39,711 bases of DNA, from positions 1-39,711 of the forward strand of contig JBGFSC010000041.1 in NCBI GenBank assembly GCA_041694815.1. The letters are read 5' to 3'. This stretch comes from Elusimicrobiota bacterium (lineage in GTDB: Bacteria; Elusimicrobiota; Elusimicrobia; UBA1565; JACRDR01). The position numbers were made by a program. Positions 6,001 through 18,000 of this stretch are shown piece by piece (the first letter of the stretch is position 1; the number at the start of each line of letters is the position of its first letter).

Positions 6001-9000
6001 GCCGTTTCCAGCAATCTATATCCCTCGCCCCAAATCCCTTCTAAAACTTTTATTTTCCGTAGGCTCGCGGCGTCCCATATAACGACCTCGTCACTTCTCT
6101 TGTCTGTTTCCTTCTTACCATAAGTAACTATTTGCGATCCGTCTTCGAGATAGTACGCAGCGTATACCTCGGAATGGGCCTTCACGCTTCGAGGCCTGTC
6201 TTTCAGCAAGGCGTCGGTATCCGAGGCAGAAACCTGCGCGCACAAGGCCAATGCGGCCAAAGTCACCACAAATAGACTCTGCATGACGTCTGAATCGTTT
6301 GTTGCTTGCTTAAGAATGGGTTCGGTTCCCATTATTGGCGAGGGCCGTTTGGTCCTTCTCTAGATGGGCCTTATGGGAACCGCCGGGTTACAGCGGGATA
6401 TTGCCGCGGTTGACGTGCTGGGAGGGGTCGCGCTTGTCGCGCAGAAAGCGCAAGGCGCGCACGACGCGCAGGCGCAACTGGCTGGGGTCGATCACCTCGT
6501 CCACCGAGCCGGTCGCGGCGGTCTGATAGGGAGAGGCGAACTTGTCGGCGTACTCCTTGCAGAGCTTCTCGCGCAGGGCGTCGCGCTGCTCCGGCGGCGC
6601 GGCCGCCAATTCGCGCGAATAAAGGATTTCCACGGCGCCCTTGGGGCCCATCACCGCGATCTCGGCCGAGGGGAAGGCGAAGTTGAAGTCGCCGCGAAGA
6701 TACTTCGAGCTCATGGCGATGTAGGCGCCGCCGTAGGCCTTGCGCAGCACCACCGTCACCTTGGGCACCGTCGCCTCGCTGTAGGCGTAGAGGAGCTTCG
6801 CTCCGTGGCGGATGATGCCGCCGTGCTCCTGCTGCACGCCGGGCCAGTAGCCCGGCACGTCGACCAAGGTCAGGATGGGGATATTGAAGGCGTTCAAGAA
6901 CCGGATAAAGCGCGCCGCCTTGTCGGAGGCGTCGATATCGAGGGCGCCGGCCATATGCGCCGGGTTGTTGGCCACCACGCCGACCACGTCTCCCCCCAGC
7001 CTCGAGAAGCCGATGATGATGTTCTTGGCGTAGTGGTCATGCACCTCGAAGAACTTGTGCTCGTCGGCGATCTGCCAGATCACGTGGTGCACGCGGTAGG
7101 GCTTTCTCGGGTCGATCTCGCAGAACTTCTCGAGCAGCGGGGTGCTGCGCCGCACGGGGTCGGGGCTGGCCACGCGAGGGGCCTTCTCTCCCGCGTGCTG
7201 CGGCAGGTACTGCAGCAGCTCGCGGACCTGGCGGAAGCAGTCCGGCTCGCTCTTGGCCACGAAATGGCAGACGCCGGATTTCGTCGCGTGCAGGTACGGC
7301 CCTCCCAAGAGATCGAAGGTGACGTCCTCCCCCGTGGCGGCCTTGACCACGTCGGGACCGGTCACGAACATGTGGCTGATGCCCTCGACCATGAAGACGA
7401 AGTCGGTCAAGGCCGGGGAATAGACGGCGCCCCCAGCGCAGGGGCCGAGCACGACGGAGATCTGCGGGATGACCCCCGAGCATCGCACGTTGCGCCAGAA
7501 TATCTCGGCGTAGCCGTCGAGGGAATCGACTCCCTCCTGGATGCGCGCGCCGCCGGAGTCGAGCAGGCCGATTACGGGGACCCGGTTCTCGTAGGCCAGG
7601 TCCATGATCTTGCATATCTTATGGGCGTGCGCCAGGCCGAGGGACCCTCCCAGCACCGTGAAATCCTGGGCGAAGATGCAGACGGGGCGCCCGGCGATCG
7701 TCCCGAAGCCGGTGATGACGCCGTCTCCGGGGACCTGTTTTTCCTTAAGGCCGAACTCCTCGCAGCGCGTGGTGACGAGCAGATCGGTCTCCTGGAAGCT
7801 GCCCTCGTCGAGCAGGTAATGGACTCGCTCGCGGGCGGTGAGCTTGCCCTTGTTCTTCTGCGCCTGGACGCGCTCCGGCCCGCCGCCGTCCATCGCGCGG
7901 CTCAATTGCTCCTCGAGCCGGCGCATGGAGGCCGAGTCCTCGCGCTTCTTGGCGGTGGAGGGTTCAGTAGGCTGTTTGGTTTCCATGGTTTCTGGCGGTG
8001 GCGACGGTCGAGCAGTACTCGTCGAAAAAGGAGGTCTTGTAGGAGACTCGCGGGCTTAAGAGCTCCTGCCAGCGCCGCAGGGCGGCTCCGCGCAGCTCAA
8101 GGCGGCCGCCCTCGACGCGGAGATCGCGTAGGTCCACGGAGAGGCCCAGCCCAAGCGCCTTGAGCACGGCCTCCTTGATCGTCCAGAGCGCGGTCAGCCG
8201 CGCGGGGCTCGCGAGCAGTGAGTCGTCGAGCTCGGAGGGGTCCGCCATTACCCAGGGCCAGGAGGGATCGCGCGGCTCGATCCTCTCGATGTCTAGGCCG
8301 ACGGCGCCTTCGCTCAGGACCGCGCAGCCGGCGTAATCGCGCGCATGGGATATAGAGAGCGCCGGCGCGCGCGTATTCCAAGACGAAGGGAAAGCCGCGT
8401 AGGGCCGCCGCTCGGGAGAATTACGGATCTCCATGTCGCCCGGGGAGGCCGCGATACCGCGTTCGGATAAATATTGGATCAGGGCCCGCTTGGCGGCCAG
8501 CCTTCCCGCCAGCCATTCCCGGCGGCGCTTGGGCGTGGCGAGCCGCCCGAGGGTCGAGGCCTCCAATCCGCTCAAATACTCGCGCAGGCTCGGCGGGTCG
8601 CCGAGCAGCGTCTCGGCTTCGGAGATGGGGCAATATTCTATTAGCGGCGACAGGAGCCGGACCGTCGTGAAATCCAGCGTGTTCATGAGACCGCGATCAT
8701 CCGATAATCCTGGAGTTCGACCCAAGCTCGGCCCTCCTCATCGAAGACGACGGCGTCGTAGACGCTCTTTTGGCCCTCCTCGGCTCCCTTGTACCAGACG
8801 CGGACGAAAAGGCGGCGCGGGGCTTCTTTATCATGCGGGAGCAGGCGGATGCGGCCGATGGAATCCGGCAGCGTCATTTTCTTGGAGAAGTGCAGGTCGC
8901 GGTAGCCGCAGGCTTGGAAGGCGGCCTCGGTCAGCAGGGGGTGGAAGGCGAGCTCCTTGGCCTTACCGTCCCAGAGCGGCTTGGCCGGCCGGAGGTAGAC

Positions 9001-15000: not shown

Positions 15001-18000
15001 GAGGAAGGCCTCGCCCCCGAGCGCCGGGTCCATATCGGGAGCCGCTGGCCCCGGATCGAGGGATTCCGTCAATCCTCCCGTTTTCTCCAAAAGGGAGAGA
15101 TCGCCGAGCCGGATCATAGTTTCGGCGTCGACCTCCTCTAAGGCGAGATGGAAATTCGTGCCGCCGAAGCCGAAGGAGCTTACGTGGGCTCGGCGCGGGT
15201 GCGCGGAGCGCTCCCATTCGCGCAGCTCCGTCACTACGAAGAACGGGGAACGCTCCCAGTCGATGCCCGGATTGGGGGTCTTGAAATGGATGCTGGGCGG
15301 CAGCTTCTTGTCGCGCAGGGCCAGGGCGGCCTTGATCACGCTCGCGGCTCCCGCCGCGGCTTTGAGATGCCCGATCTGCGACTTGACCGAGCCGAGGCCG
15401 ATGGAGCCCTTGGGCGCCGCCTTGAATATCTCGATGGCGGCGTTGGCCTCGATGACGTCGCCGACCTTCGTCGAGGTGCCGTGCGCCTCCAGCAGGCCCA
15501 CCGCCTCCGGCGCGTAATTGAGCTGGCGGAAGGCGCGCTCGATGGCCAGGCGCTGCCCCTTTGGATTAGGCGCGGTGATGCCCTTGCCGCGGCCGTCCGA
15601 GGAGGACCCGACGGCCCGGATCAAGGCGTAGATGCGGTCTCCGTCCTTGAGCGCGTCGCGCAGGCGCTTGAGCACCATTACGCCGGCGCCCTCGCCCATC
15701 ACGAAGCCGTTGGCGCCGGCGTCGAAAGGCCGGGACCCGTCGGGGGAGAGGGCCCCGATCTTGCAGAACTTGACGAAGGCCGGAGCCGACATCATCTGGT
15801 CGATCCCGCCGCTTAAGGCCATGTCGTACTCGTGGAAGCGCAGCCCGGAGACGGCCTGGCTCAGCGCGGCCAAGGACGAGGCGCAGGCGGCGTCGACGGT
15901 GATGTTGGCGCCGTTGAAATTGAACGCGTTGGCGACCCGGCCGGCGATGACGTTGGAAAGCTCGCCGGGCATCGTATCTTCCGTGATCGTGCTCAGTTGG
16001 GACTTGGCCGAGCGCTCCATCTCGTCGGCGATGGCCCGCCTGGCGGTCTCGGGAAGGGCGGCGAAGGAGGGGCTCGATTCGAGCTGTTGGCGGTAATAGG
16101 AAGCGTAAACGCGCAGGTCGGTCTGCTCTTTCTTCGGCCCGCCCATCGAATTGCCTAGGATGACGGCCGTGCGCTCGGGATCGTAAGGCTTCTTGTCGTA
16201 GCCCGAGTCGCGCAGGGCCTCGGCGGTCGCCGAGACGGCCAACTGCTGCACCCCGTCCATCTGCTGGGCCACCGGCGGCGGGATGCGCAGCTTGAGCGGA
16301 TCGAATTTAAATCCCTGGATGAATCCGCCGATCTTGGAATAGGTTTTGTCCGGCGCGGCGGGATCAGGATCGTAATAGAGCCGCCAGTCCCAGCGCTCGG
16401 GCGGGACTTGGGAGATGCAGTCCTTGCCGTTCTGGATATTCGTCCAGAACTCCGGGATGTCCTGGGCGCCGGGGAATATGCCGCCGATCCCGACGATGGC
16501 GATGGATTCCGACGGGTCGATGCGCGTCATCAGGGTTAGCCGAGTTGCGGGACGCCGACGATGGAATAGCCCGCGTCCACGAAGATCACCTGGCCGGTGA
16601 TCATCTTGGCCTCCTCCGAGGCGAGAAAGGCCGCCGATTGGGCGACGTCCTTCGTGGTTACGTTGTCGCGCAGCGGGGCGACCGATTTGTGGTAATCGAG
16701 GATGTAGTCGAAGTCCTTGATGCCGCTGGCCGCCAAGGTCTTGATCGGCCCCGCCGAAACCGCGTTGACCCGGATCTTCCTGGGGCCTAGCTCGAAGGCC
16801 AATTCGCGCACGTAGGCTTCCAGCGCGGCCTTGGCCACCCCCATGACCTTGTAATTGGAGCAGACCCGCTGCCCTCCCAGATAAGTCAAGGTGATCACCG
16901 ACCCGCCCCTGGGCATCTTGGGAGCCGAGTGCTGGAGTATCTTGGAGAGCGAGTAGCTCGAAACCGTCAGGGCCTGGCCGAAATCCTCCGCCGTCACCTC
17001 CAGGAGCGGGCGCTCGAAGGTGGACGCCGGGGCGAAGGCGATGGAGTGGATCACGATGTCGATCGGGTCCTTGATTTTTGCGAAAAAAGCTTGCATTTCC
17101 TCTTCTTTCGCGACATCGCAGCGATCGAAGGAAAGTAGATTAGGCAGCTTGGGCGCCAGATCCTTGATGCGGCTGTGGTAACGGAACTGATAGGCGAGGA
17201 TGATCTTGGCGCCCTGGGAGGCCAGTTCTTGTGCGATTGCCCAGGCGATCGAGGTTTCGCTGGCTACGCCGAAAACAAGAGCGGTTTTGCCTTTTAAATC
17301 AGGCATTTATGCATTTTATCTATTTTCCGATGGAGCGTCAAGAATTTATAAGGAAAGCGTCCGATCGTTGACACTTCGGATTTTTTCCGCTACACTGGGC
17401 CGTTGATGGAAGACTGGTGGCTTTACGGGGCCTCGGCCGGTTTTTTGGCCACGGCCGCCCTTTGGCCGTACTTCCTTTTCAAATACCGCCGCTCCTCAGC
17501 CCCGGTCGAGGACGCCGAGTTCTCCTCGGAGCCAATCGAGCCGGTGTCCATGCCGTTCCCTGAGTCGGCCCCCGTCCCCGAGCCCATTCCCCAGCAGGCC
17601 GTGGAAGTCAAGTCGGCGGCCAATCCGGCTCCCGTTCCCGCGGCCGTCGCCGCCGGTGCCGGGTCCCAACTTAAGGCGGCGCTCGCCGCCGTGCCGGGCT
17701 CCGATACGACGGCGCCGCTTAAGACCTTGAAAACCGGGGAGACCAGCACCGGAGGCGTGAGCCCCGCGGTCATCTATCTGCAGAATCTCAAGAACAACCT
17801 GGAGCATCTCGAAAAAGAGGTCTCGAGCCTGAAGCTTCAAGTCTCCAATTTCTCGCAGAAGCATGACGCTCAATTCAATTCGCTGCTACAGCGCTTGGGC
17901 GAGGTAAAGGAGGAGCTGCATAACCTGCCTCACGAGGCGGCGGCCGCTCCCGCCACCGCGGCGGCTTCGACGATCCCTCTACCGGCGGCATCACCCCAAG

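Follow-up and report, generated by a model that had tools for sequence, protein, structure and literature searches.

The operon described here lies in the window, i.e., the whole 39,711-nt stretch of contig JBGFSC010000041.1 from an Elusimicrobiota bacterium. With a probability of roughly 0.6, it encodes a self-contained iterative type I fatty acid synthase cassette on which this organism, like many other Elusimicrobiota, relies for all acyl chains made de novo. What is observed is which genes are present, that the catalytic residues are intact, that no other ketosynthase (KS) or acyltransferase (AT) exists and that the cassette is conserved. The initial annotation held that the synthase must make the primary fatty acids. 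The sole KS and AT and the real absence of discrete counterparts uphold this view, but the word 'must' is too strong for an argument by elimination; primary fatty acid synthesis is the best explanation that such elimination yields.

Organization of the operon

The four ORFs were found exactly where they had been annotated, all on the minus strand (Table 1). They are tightly packed, with a 5-nt gap between the FabI-like gene and the megasynthase start, an overlap of 43 nt between the megasynthase end and the PPTase gene, and an overlap of 23 nt between the PPTase and carboxyltransferase (CT) genes. The one promoter-like site ahead of them is the sole minus-strand match within 5800-17900; it is a consensus match only, with two such matches observed on both strands vs. 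1.0 expected from shuffles.

The FabI-like reductase scores 256.4 bits against the best NCBIfam FabI equivalog, under the cut-off of 337. It is the only such gene in the genome (the next tblastn match is 33% identical), where no FabK was found either, and it is 50.6% identical to the enoyl reductase (ER) adjoining a Heimdallarchaeota megasynthase. Probably, it is the trans-acting ER of the megasynthase. The PPTase has the Pfam domains ACPS and 4PPT_N, and a separate AcpS is encoded on contig C24. The CT reaches 724 bits with TIGR01117 (cut-off 998.8) and shares 69% identity with the Elusimicrobium posterum CT encoded after the PPTase. An AccA/AccD-type CT is absent from the genome, its three CTs all being of the 12S/PccB/MmdA type, and the one in the operon is a probable CT subunit of acetyl-CoA carboxylase (ACC). 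With its own reductase, PPTase and CT, the operon contains what a self-contained fatty acid synthase would need.

Table 1. Genes, domains and promoter-like site of the operon (positions in the window)
Feature	Position	Strand	Basis or content
Whole operon	6388-17306	-	FabI-like reductase, megasynthase, Sfp-type PPTase, carboxyltransferase
Promoter match, sigma-70-like, TTGACG-17-TAAAAT	17313-17341	-	10/12 consensus positions; just upstream of FabI-like gene
FabI-like enoyl reductase, 256 aa	16536-17306	-	Pfam adh_short_C2, 259.3 bits
Type R megasynthase, 2,615 aa, KS1-AT-KS2-ACP-ACP-KR-DH	8683-16530	-	Pfam domain matches
KS1, aa 8-470, Cys216/His350/His388	15121-16509	-	PF00109 + PF02801 (Pfam KS match aa 8-416)
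AT, aa 604-926, GHSLG Ser703, HAFH at 805	13753-14721	-	PF00698, 153 bits (158.1 bits in the six-frame search)
KS2, about aa 1040-1500, Cys1243/His1391/His1431	12031-13413	-	Alignment to solved FabF structures
ACP1, aa 1597-1664, Thr1627 (ACG, nt 11650-11652)	11539-11742	-	PF00550
ACP2, about aa 1725-1792, Thr1755 (nt 11266-11268)	11155-11358	-	PP-binding domain
KR, aa 2038-2260	9751-10419	-	PF08659, 111 bits
PKS-type DH, aa 2343-2614, His2373 in HxxxGxxxxP	8689-9504	-	PF21089 + PF14765
Sfp-type 4'-phosphopantetheinyl transferase (PPTase), 253 aa from first start codon	7964-8725	-	PF01648, 50 bits, + PF17837
Carboxyltransferase, 12S/PccB/MmdA type, 532 aa	6388-7986	-	PF01039, 606 bits

Domains and carrier sites of the megasynthase

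By sequence, the catalytic residues of KS1, KS2, AT, KR and DH are all intact. KS1 matches the FabF model with 370.5 bits, and the AT scores 215.5 bits against TIGR00128 (fabD), under the cut-off of 260.9; we take its HAFH motif to be a mark of malonyl specificity. The HxxxGxxxxP of the DH is likewise presumed to be a meaningful motif. The domain between AT and ACP1 had been labelled 'KS-like (CLF)', and CLF is also its label in the literature, but this does not hold: all three catalytic residues are matched in the alignment to solved FabF structures (1j3n, E 2e-27), and the domain, which also gives a weak PF08545 match at aa 1239-1275, keeps the Cys-His-His triad of a second ketosynthase. No thioesterase or other release domain was found, nor any step that would transfer chains to AcpP, PlsX or LpxA.

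Both carrier domains have Thr instead of the phosphopantetheine Ser, as illustrated by Thr1627 of ACP1, whose aligned counterpart in solved ACPs is the D-S motif Ser. Among the best 120 homologues, Thr occupies this site in 334 of 334 motifs, an invariance that suggests strong selection. To our knowledge, all described carrier proteins have Ser at the attachment position. Literature phrase and motif searches returned no report of Thr phosphopantetheinylation, and a Thr carrier site was found neither by these searches nor in the accessible sections of PMC3098273. If Thr cannot be phosphopantetheinylated, the cis ACPs of the megasynthase would be dead.

Ketosynthases, acyltransferases and retained lipid genes in the genome

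Six-frame HMM searches of the whole genome and an independent tblastn search confirm that the megasynthase carries the only KS and AT. Of the seven PF00109 matches, three fall within the megasynthase (234.9, 36.5 and 27.7 bits), two on contig C35 and one on C6 (21.5-23.6 bits for these latter three), and the last, on C44, is under the cut-off. The weak matches had been taken for thiolases; those on C35 are true thiolases, whereas the C6 ORF is assigned by likeness only, being 62% identical to a thiolase-size ORF of a relative. As had also been reported, PF00698 has its sole match above the cut-off in the megasynthase and PF08541 has none (best 25.9 bits, on C6). TIGR00747 (FabH) had no match in the genome at E<=1e-5. 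The tblastn queries, all from relatives, were a divergent FASII cluster, single sequences of canonical FabF and of stand-alone AT, four canonical FabH and five stand-alone KS; they matched solely the C34 megasynthase and, weakly and once, the thiolase-like ORF on C6. FabH, FabD and FabF/B are thus absent as discrete genes, and beyond the megasynthase nothing in the genome is able to condense or load malonyl units.

The genes that were said to be retained, i.e., FabG, AcpP, FabZ, PlsX, PlsY, lpxA and lpxC, are indeed present. The order rpmF-plsX-fabG-acpP-rnc sits intact in the middle of contig C49, without fabH, fabD or fabF. The ORF annotated at this locus as yceD had no NCBIfam match. FabZ is located within a lpxD-lpxC-fabZ-lpxA-lpxI-lpxB-msbA cluster. 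Consumers of acyl chains are encoded as well, namely PlsX, PlsY, two PlsC and the full lipid A cluster. Known routes for scavenging fatty acids are mostly missing: no FakB/DegV was found in the genome, and the only two AMP-binding enzymes are an acetyl-CoA synthetase (Acs) and a FadD-like ligase (471.7 bits vs. a cut-off of 476), which could be an entry route for exogenous fatty acids. Three thiolases, a 3-hydroxyacyl-CoA dehydrogenase, an enoyl-CoA hydratase and an acyl-CoA dehydrogenase with EtfAB are also present.

Conservation in Elusimicrobiota and archaea

Within the family, no AT in a frame under 500 aa occurs in any of six genomes (G000 included), and one genome has an extra KS in a 474-aa frame (G007; 77% complete, 6% contaminated). 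The 97%-complete relatives G009 and G011 show the same absence pattern. In the order, AT frames under 500 aa were found in 19 of 41 genomes (f2, 17/18; f3, 2/17; f1, 0/6) and canonical FabH above the cut-off in 5 of 41. The FabH-like gene annotated in four of five family relatives was recovered at 185-210 bits, under the cut-off, and is lacking here; G013 carries one too. In the relatives it forms a non-syntenic pair with a fabG paralogue, of which no remnant exists in this genome.

Two isolates have a like pattern. In E. simillimum, KS and AT occur only within the synthase, and in E. posterum, with a complete genome, the same holds for AT; both are without FabH. Three further small KS form a cluster with two ACPs in E. 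posterum. AT was detected in 40 of the 41 Elusimicrobiaceae genomes sampled, the best match always lying in a frame of 1,045 aa or more, and a stand-alone AT in none of the 41. Because the family, the two isolates and all 41 sampled Elusimicrobiaceae lack a stand-alone AT, the absence is a widespread trait of Elusimicrobiota and not an oddity of one MAG. The plsX-fabG-acpP-rnc order is the same in all three genomes compared (E. posterum, E. simillimum and G013), and AcpP is present in 5 of 5 tested. FabG, FabZ and AcpP are kept wherever tested, though the megasynthase has its own KR, DH and ACPs.

Full-length relatives of the megasynthase are 76-52% identical in Elusimicrobiota and 41-47% identical in archaeal MAGs. 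The gene order synthase-PPTase-CT recurs in both isolates, while two Heimdallarchaeota loci read AccC-BCCP-CT-synthase-ER and one Thermoplasmatota locus CT-synthase-BioY-AccC-BCCP. Of the archaeal proteins, L033 and L028 were scanned, and in each the synthase carries a PPTase domain as a C-terminal fusion. A cassette with ACC genes, reductase and fused PPTase therefore recurs in MAGs of these archaea. Since 18 of the 19 PP-binding matches in five archaeal genomes lie inside the synthase, the cassette would work there without AcpP.

Comparison with known synthases

In the accessible sections of Shulse and Allen (2011; PMC3098273), Type R 'secondary lipid' synthases include members from Elusimicrobium minutum, Koribacter, Solibacter and Roseiflexus, and are filed as accessory in Acidobacteria and Roseiflexus. 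The operon shares with them a single pfaA homologue of the order KS-MAT-second KS-like-tandem ACP-KR, a PPTase gene after it and an ACC subunit gene within the cluster, as in Koribacter; proteins of Elusimicrobium and Avelusimicrobium match its KS2 region with 52-53% identity. It differs by having two ACPs and a C-terminal DH, compared to three to six ACPs in those sections, a full catalytic triad at the 'CLF' position, a FabI-like ER within the operon, and a host without FASII condensing and loading enzymes. The FAS II section of the paper names neither Type R nor E. minutum among the exceptions. A 'core FAS' role is proposed there for Type M (Renibacterium salmoninarum) and Type S (Desulfobacterium autotrophicum), where a Pfa-like synthase likewise substitutes for an incomplete FASII (PMC3098273). 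Their gap, however, concerns the dehydratases fabA/fabZ, whereas here FabZ, FabG and AcpP are kept and much of the phylum lacks the enzymes for condensing and loading.

Pfa (PUFA) synthases are likewise iterative type I enzymes with KS-AT-tandem ACP-KR and a dedicated PPTase, and have a closely similar ACP motif context, D-L-G-I-D-x-[IV]-K. In contrast to them, the megasynthase reaches 839 bits on the PfaA model TIGR02813, under the cut-off of 1010, has no PfaB, PfaC or PfaD partners, is accompanied by an ER of the FabI-type SDR rather than the PfaD/NMO type, and has Thr at the ACP site, which is Ser in PfaA-like genes from related Elusimicrobiota genomes. With bacterial type II FAS the genome shares discrete FabG, FabZ, AcpP and AcpS, as well as FabF-like KS1 and KS2 and a FabD-like AT, but not discrete FabH, FabD and FabF/B. 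The type I FAS of Corynebacterium and Mycobacterium is multidomain as well and provides the housekeeping fatty acids, either replacing FASII or acting before it. It is built as a fungal-type barrel that includes ER and malonyl/palmitoyl transferase in cis and releases acyl-CoA, in hosts without lipid A. It is a functional analogue of unrelated architecture and lineage; in the present system, the ER is encoded by a gene of its own and a release domain was not seen.

Alternative explanations

It is hardly credible that FabH, FabD and FabF are encoded in the unassembled 2% of the genome, even though this is a MAG in 54 contigs (97.82% complete) and most family relatives have a FabH-like gene. That gene is non-syntenic in the relatives and left no remnant here, and the canonical fab locus is intact. 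Because the locus is intact and the isolates, one of them with a complete genome, the 41 Elusimicrobiaceae, G009 and G011 have a like pattern, the missing genes do not reflect an assembly gap. It is improbable, too, that the synthase makes a specialized ('secondary') lipid only, with bulk fatty acids taken up or made by thiolases independently of ACP. The definition of Type R and its occurrence in Acidobacteria and Roseiflexus (accessible sections of PMC3098273), the FadD-like ligase and the thiolase and CoA-linked enzymes all speak for it. However, FakB/DegV is lacking and neither of the two AMP-binding enzymes is an acyl-ACP synthetase, so that PlsX and LpxA would have no known supply of acyl-ACP. 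Moreover, the cassette brings an ACC subunit of its own and an ER of the saturating FabI type, and free-living groundwater-type MAGs and culturable isolates have the same gene set.

LpxA and LpxD require 3-hydroxyacyl-ACP, and this need of lipid A argues against a secondary lipid synthase while favoring a hybrid type I/type II system, a possible but less likely arrangement. Here, the AT and one KS of the megasynthase would act in trans on free AcpP, on which FabG, FabZ and the FabI-like reductase would run a FASII-like cycle, so that lipid A synthesis would receive 3-hydroxyacyl-AcpP and PlsX would receive acyl-AcpP; the cis carriers would be used for another product or for just part of the cycle. 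Such a system is consistent with FabG, FabZ, AcpP and AcpS being kept here and in every relative tested, with the conserved acpP locus and the position of FabZ in the lipid A cluster, and with the FabD and FabF model scores of AT and KS1 and the two intact KS domains. Retention of FabG, FabZ and AcpP suits it at least as well as it suits a primary fatty acid synthase. Against it, the archaeal cassette has no AcpP to serve, the KR and DH of the synthase are intact, and the Thr carrier motif is invariant, hence strongly selected.

A probable primary fatty acid synthase

For the proposed primary fatty acid synthase, the product, its chain length, the modification of Thr and the hand-over of chains are inferred. 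The operon CT, joined by AccC and a small biotinyl protein encoded on C24, would supply malonyl-CoA, and the Sfp-type PPTase would arm both carrier domains, with Thr1627 and Thr1755 as the apparent sites, by a chemistry that has not been described. The AT would load malonyl units for condensation by KS1 and KS2, after which KR, DH and the FabI-like reductase in trans would complete each cycle to give saturated chains. These may then be handed to AcpP or CoA for PlsX, PlsY, PlsC and lipid A. In this organism, a synthase that has been filed as 'accessory' thus probably builds the membrane lipids.

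Organization of the megasynthase operon

The megasynthase belongs to a four-gene operon on the minus strand, and the ORFs and Pfam domains that the initial annotation had assigned to it were all confirmed. The genes are tightly packed: in gene order, a 5-nt gap is followed by overlaps of 43 and 23 nt. A sigma-70-like sequence is located directly 5′ of the FabI-like gene and is the sole minus-strand match within positions 5800–17900, although it is a consensus match only, from a scan that gave two matches on both strands together against 1.0 expected. The flanks are unrelated to lipid synthesis. 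On the 3′ side (3618–6332) they encode two WD40-repeat proteins and an FGE-sulfatase-family protein, and on the 5′ side, divergently (17403–19315), a 323-aa ORF without a family and a PorV-like protein.

Features of the megasynthase operon (window positions) and of related archaeal loci
Feature	Position	Strand	Basis
FabI-like SDR (ER)	16536–17306	minus	Pfam "enoyl-ACP reductase" model, 259.3 bits
Megasynthase, 2,615 aa	8683–16530	minus	KS1-AT-KS2-ACP-ACP-KR-DH (Pfam)
Megasynthase domains (aa)	KS 8–416; AT 604–926; KS-like ~1240–1500; two PP-binding; KR 2038–2260; DH		Pfam
KS2 (second ketosynthase domain)	12031–13413	minus	Catalytic residues and alignment to FabF
Sfp-type PPTase	7964–8725	minus	ACPS-family ORF, overlaps the synthase end
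Carboxyltransferase (CT), 12S/PccB/MmdA type (predicted)	6388–7986	minus	PF01039, 606 bits, profile positions 2–488 of 493
Archaeal relatives (loci L018–L039)	e.g., L033:6104–20570, L035:6102–20501, L028:8269–22060

A chain-length factor (CLF) is a KS-like domain without the active-site Cys. The label "KS-like (CLF)" that KS2 had received is not borne out, as the domain aligns with solved FabF structures (1j3n, E 2e-27) and its Cys1243, His1391 and His1431 match the Cys-His-His of Thermus thermophilus FabF. With this triad kept in full, KS2 is a ketosynthase and not a CLF. The region around its Cys gives a weak match to KAS III (PF08545) of 19.6 bits, below the cut-off of 24; in two archaeal copies the same region reaches 26.2 and 33.5 bits. 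Beyond KS2 and the carriers, the catalytic residues are intact as well: the first ketosynthase domain (KS1) has Cys216, His350 and His388, the AT carries GHSLG and HAFH, and the DH carries His2373.

The reductase is the only FabI-like gene that tblastn detects in the genome under study (G000). Its best score against the NCBIfam FabI equivalogs is 256.4 bits (NF005717), under the cut-off of 337, while it does pass the Pfam SDR model, and "FabI-like" is therefore the correct term. No FabK was found in G000, where the best match to the NMO model, which would also cover a PfaD-type ER, scores just 35.7 bits in a 479-aa frame.

The operon belongs to the Type R cluster that Shulse and Allen (2011; PMC3098273) described. 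There, Type R consists of one pfaA homolog with the order KS-MAT-second KS-like-tandem ACP-KR, the second KS being called a CLF. G000 fits this layout, with an additional DH, and shares the PPTase gene directly 3′. Three to six tandem ACPs are described for Type R, against two in G000; this number varies within the clade, since close homologs carry 1–5. In the comparison made, with proteins of Elusimicrobium posterum and Avelusimicrobium, the KS2 region is 52–53% identical. The megasynthase differs from PfaA proper, scoring 839.4 bits against a TIGR02813 cut-off of 1010.1. Moreover, PfaA systems have the partners pfaB, pfaC and pfaD (an NMO-type ER), none of which is present in the G000 operon, where all KS and AT domains are in one gene.

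Condensing and loading enzymes of the genome

The type II pathway of making fatty acids (FASII) is regarded as almost universal among bacteria and serves as a target for antibiotics. Its discrete FabH, FabD and FabF/B were not found in G000 by profile searches or tblastn, and both approaches independently bear out the earlier claim that the only KS and AT domains of this genome reside in the megasynthase. In genome-wide searches with PF00109, PF00698, PF08541 and TIGR00747, nothing outside the megasynthase exceeded the cut-offs except three weak PF00109 matches (~22 bits), two on contig C35 and one on C6. The tblastn queries, all taken from relatives, comprised four canonical FabH and five stand-alone KS, a single canonical FabF and a single stand-alone AT, plus a divergent FASII cluster; they matched only the megasynthase on contig C34 and, weakly, a thiolase-like ORF on C6, which shares 62% identity with an ORF of thiolase size from a relative. 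Weak PF00109 and PF08541 matches on C35, considered as hidden KS genes, turned out to be genuine thiolases.

The housekeeping locus on C49 is intact and lies mid-contig, reading rpmF-plsX-fabG-acpP-rnc, followed by an acyl-CoA dehydrogenase gene and etfBA. The previously given order, which started with yceD, holds from rpmF through rnc; the ORF taken for yceD has no NCBIfam match at 1e-5. For the RNase III ORF of this locus (C49:9169–9669; L017:6170–6670), the match to its model does not begin before profile position 57, and ~170 nt are uncalled between acpP and its start, so that translation may really begin farther upstream or at an unusual codon.

Distribution across Elusimicrobiota

Of the order's 41 genomes, a set that includes G000, five have a canonical FabH above its cut-off and six have FabF-like matches (178–201 bits, frames of ~420–475 aa). 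An AT in a frame of less than 500 aa is present in 19 of the 41: in 17 of 18 genomes of family f2, two of 17 of f3 and none of the six of f1, the family of G000. These AT counts were tallied by hand from the table and leave out, as ambiguous, a second AT of G010 (838-aa frame) and that of G031 (520-aa frame at a contig end). Within f1, the sole KS outside the synthase is one match in a 474-aa frame in G007 (77% completeness, 6% contamination); G006 encodes another large synthase besides.

A second megasynthase pair, with frames of 2,000–2,500 aa, a PfaA/PfaC-like layout and Ser-type ACPs, is found in many of the order's genomes. Examples are L153 (G008:C5), L154 (G017:C27) and many f2 and f3 genomes. 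The f3 genomes G009, G015 and G021 combine such a pair with Type R and have no stand-alone KS or AT, and G023 seemingly has the Pfa-like pair only.

Genomes beyond the order provide even stronger evidence. In the isolates E. posterum Dip510, whose genome is complete, and E. simillimum Sma112, the only AT domain is that of the orthologous synthase, and FabH is absent from both genomes (best E-value 0.02, inside the synthase). In E. simillimum every KS lies within the synthase, while E. posterum has three small KS (109, 109 and 42 bits) and two weak ACPs (50 and 40 bits) in a separate type II-like cluster (G043 C1:1054124–1065663) that is absent from E. simillimum. The order plsX-fabG-acpP-rnc is the same in both isolates and in G013. 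In the family of E. posterum, sampled with a completeness filter of at least 90%, 40 of the 41 genomes have an AT match and one has none; the frame that holds the best match is never shorter than 1,045 aa, and no genome has a stand-alone AT. Taken together, the data from the order, the isolates and this family show that the trait is widespread in Elusimicrobiota and not an artefact of the G000 assembly.

Some family relatives have a FabG paralog followed by a FabH-like gene of 185–210 bits, below the FabH cut-off (G006, L053:7610–10820; G004, L055:3098–4846). Its frame is long in G006, G003 and G007, where the C-terminal part resembles a FadD-like acyl-CoA ligase. In a synteny test the gene showed no conserved neighborhood and no remnant or counterpart in G000; it neither explains nor weakens the absence in that genome.

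Threonine at the carrier attachment site

In carrier proteins the acceptor of phosphopantetheine is a Ser. Both carriers of the megasynthase read D-L-G-I-D-T-V-K, in which Thr1627 (window 11650–11652) and Thr1755 (window 11266–11268) occupy, in the alignment, the position of the Ser that bears phosphopantetheine in solved ACPs. The Ser of the motif D-S-[LIV] is thus replaced, yet PF00550 is matched at 51.9 bits. Thr occurs in every repeat of 23 related loci, a set that is biased because one of the scan patterns adjoins the carrier motif. In the 120 best homologs, selected by their KS2 region, strict counting of the motif gave 334 Thr and 0 Ser, with three truncated proteins lacking the motif. 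Among 150 representatives (50% clustering), 338 of 349 motifs have Thr, ten Ser and one Gln; by protein, 121 have Thr only, three Ser only and two both, and 24 are fragments without the motif. P0196, a homolog that mixes Ser and Thr repeats within one protein, suggests that the two residues are interchangeable as acceptors. Controls from the same phylum, i.e., the PfaA-like synthases of G008 and G017 as well as AcpP, have Ser. The carrier Thr is a hallmark of the lineage rather than a local oddity. Phrase and motif searches in a limited literature collection returned no paper on phosphopantetheine attached to Thr.

A conserved cassette with archaeal copies

The self-contained cassette is also conserved. 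Synthase, PPTase and CT follow one another in E. posterum and E. simillimum as they do in G000, and full-length relatives with 41–47% identity are found on long contigs whose titles name Thermoplasmatota and Heimdallarchaeota MAGs. Two of the Heimdallarchaeota loci have the order AccC-BCCP-CT-synthase-ER and adjoin an archease gene, the ER being 50.6% identical to the FabI-like protein of the operon, and a Thermoplasmatota locus reads CT-synthase-BioY-AccC-BCCP. In both archaeal proteins that were scanned (L033, L028), a PPTase domain is fused to the C-terminus of the synthase. Within five such archaeal genomes, 18 of 19 PP-binding matches lie inside the synthase and the remaining one in a 92-aa frame, so that nearly all the domains available to the fused PPTase would be of the Thr type, and the cassette would work there without AcpP. 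Judged by gene content, the archaeal copies thus show a cassette that would have no need of AcpP, and these loci look like a portable fatty-acid synthase in archaea. A PUFA-like PKS cluster was noted before in a Heimdallarchaeota MAG, without a function in the accessible part of that paper (Chen et al., 2020; PMC7472256).

Precursor supply and consumers of acyl chains

For malonyl-CoA supply, G000 encodes a full-length Carboxyl_trans CT, a biotin carboxylase and a biotin carrier. The operon CT is predicted to be an acyl-CoA carboxylase carboxyltransferase, and all three CTs of the genome are of the PccB type, with none of the AccA/AccD type. That on C44, grouped with enoyl-CoA hydratase and HMG-CoA lyase, appears from this context to be catabolic. 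Another (C28:24080–25900; L063:5082–6902) is 62% identical to the operon CT of E. posterum and has an N-terminal extension of ~95 aa; a nearby type III pantothenate kinase gene has one of 180 aa. AccC is encoded on C24 (649.6 bits, cut-off 626.5). The ORF adjoining accC was considered as BCCP and turned out to be a zinc ribbon. A tblastn search with archaeal BCCPs gave one weak match in G000, and the biotinyl domain was located afterwards: a short ORF (36.4 bits) precedes the 138-aa double zinc-ribbon ORF, which is followed by accC (C24:24708–26724; L067, L164). This interrupted accB-accC arrangement is unusual.

On the consumer side, G000 has PlsX, PlsY and two PlsC, together with a lipid A cluster bamA-lpxD-lpxC-fabZ-lpxA-lpxI-(unknown)-lpxB-msbA. 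AcpP is present, as is AcpS besides the PPTase of the operon.

The megasynthase as the probable fatty-acid synthase

The megasynthase is most likely the de novo fatty-acid synthase of the cell, because of elimination and the completeness of the cassette. The earlier proposal that it makes the primary fatty acids is thereby retained as the best available explanation, short of proof. That it is the sole source of acyl chains is given a probability of about 0.8. An assembly gap as the cause of the missing FASII genes is improbable, given that the absence recurs across the order, in isolates including the complete E. posterum genome, and in the family of E. posterum. Scavenging of exogenous fatty acids is also weak as an explanation: DegV/FakB was not found in G000, and its AMP-binding enzymes are just two, one FadD-like ligase and Acs.

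A closer competitor is a hybrid model, in which AcpP is served in trans by the AT together with one KS. FabG, FabZ and AcpP are kept everywhere examined, which is the main evidence for this model, whereas the archaeal copies do without AcpP, even if the cassette may still serve AcpP in bacteria. PlsX, LpxA and LpxD require acyl-AcpP or 3-hydroxyacyl-AcpP. Transfer from the synthase to these enzymes would be the gap in the proposed route, as no thioesterase or transfer domain was found in the synthase. The fuller version of the de novo synthase reading, with synthesis proceeding on the megasynthase's own Thr-linked carriers, is held with less assurance, at somewhat better than even odds. More tentative still, with the odds rather against all of its parts holding together, is a joint claim: that the Type R cassette (ACC subunit, KS-AT-KS-ACPn-KR-DH, dedicated PPTase and FabI-like ER) is a horizontally mobile, self-sufficient FAS, which has taken the place of FASII's condensing and loading half in much of the lipid-A-making phylum Elusimicrobiota, carries phosphopantetheine on a carrier Thr, a linkage not found described, and lets some AcpP-less Heimdallarchaeota and Thermoplasmatota make fatty acids.

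The textbook exception to FASII is the actinobacterial type I FAS, a functional analog of the G000 megasynthase that is structurally unrelated to the Type R synthase. For Pfa-type synthases, a "core FAS" role has been floated for Type M and Type S, in two organisms without fabA/fabZ; the FAS II section of the same paper names neither Type R nor E. minutum among the exceptions (Shulse and Allen, 2011; PMC3098273). Full-text searches, which did not cover Herlemann et al. (2009), returned no paper assigning a Pfa-type primary FAS to Elusimicrobia; the papers listed for E. simillimum did not seem to deal with lipid metabolism, and the accessible parts of Galperin (2008) and of a Clostridium PKS paper mention E. 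minutum merely in passing. The synthase is of a catalogued type, with an apparent housekeeping role, a carrier chemistry undescribed in the literature searched, and archaeal relatives.

If confirmed, the invariant carrier Thr with its PPTase, whether dedicated or fused, would amount to a novel form of a well-known post-translational modification. The archaeal copies matter to the question of how fatty acids could be made in some archaea. The reading also poses the biochemical question of how a type I synthase feeds the AcpP-dependent PlsX, LpxA and LpxD, and it is testable, as cultured Elusimicrobium species share the gene set. The catalogued "secondary" synthase apparently serves as housekeeping FAS across much of the lipid-A-making phylum. 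If this is true, the loss of FabH, FabD and FabF/B together with the reliance on a Pfa-type megasynthase would constitute a third housekeeping route to fatty acids, and would show that "secondary lipid" synthases can turn primary.
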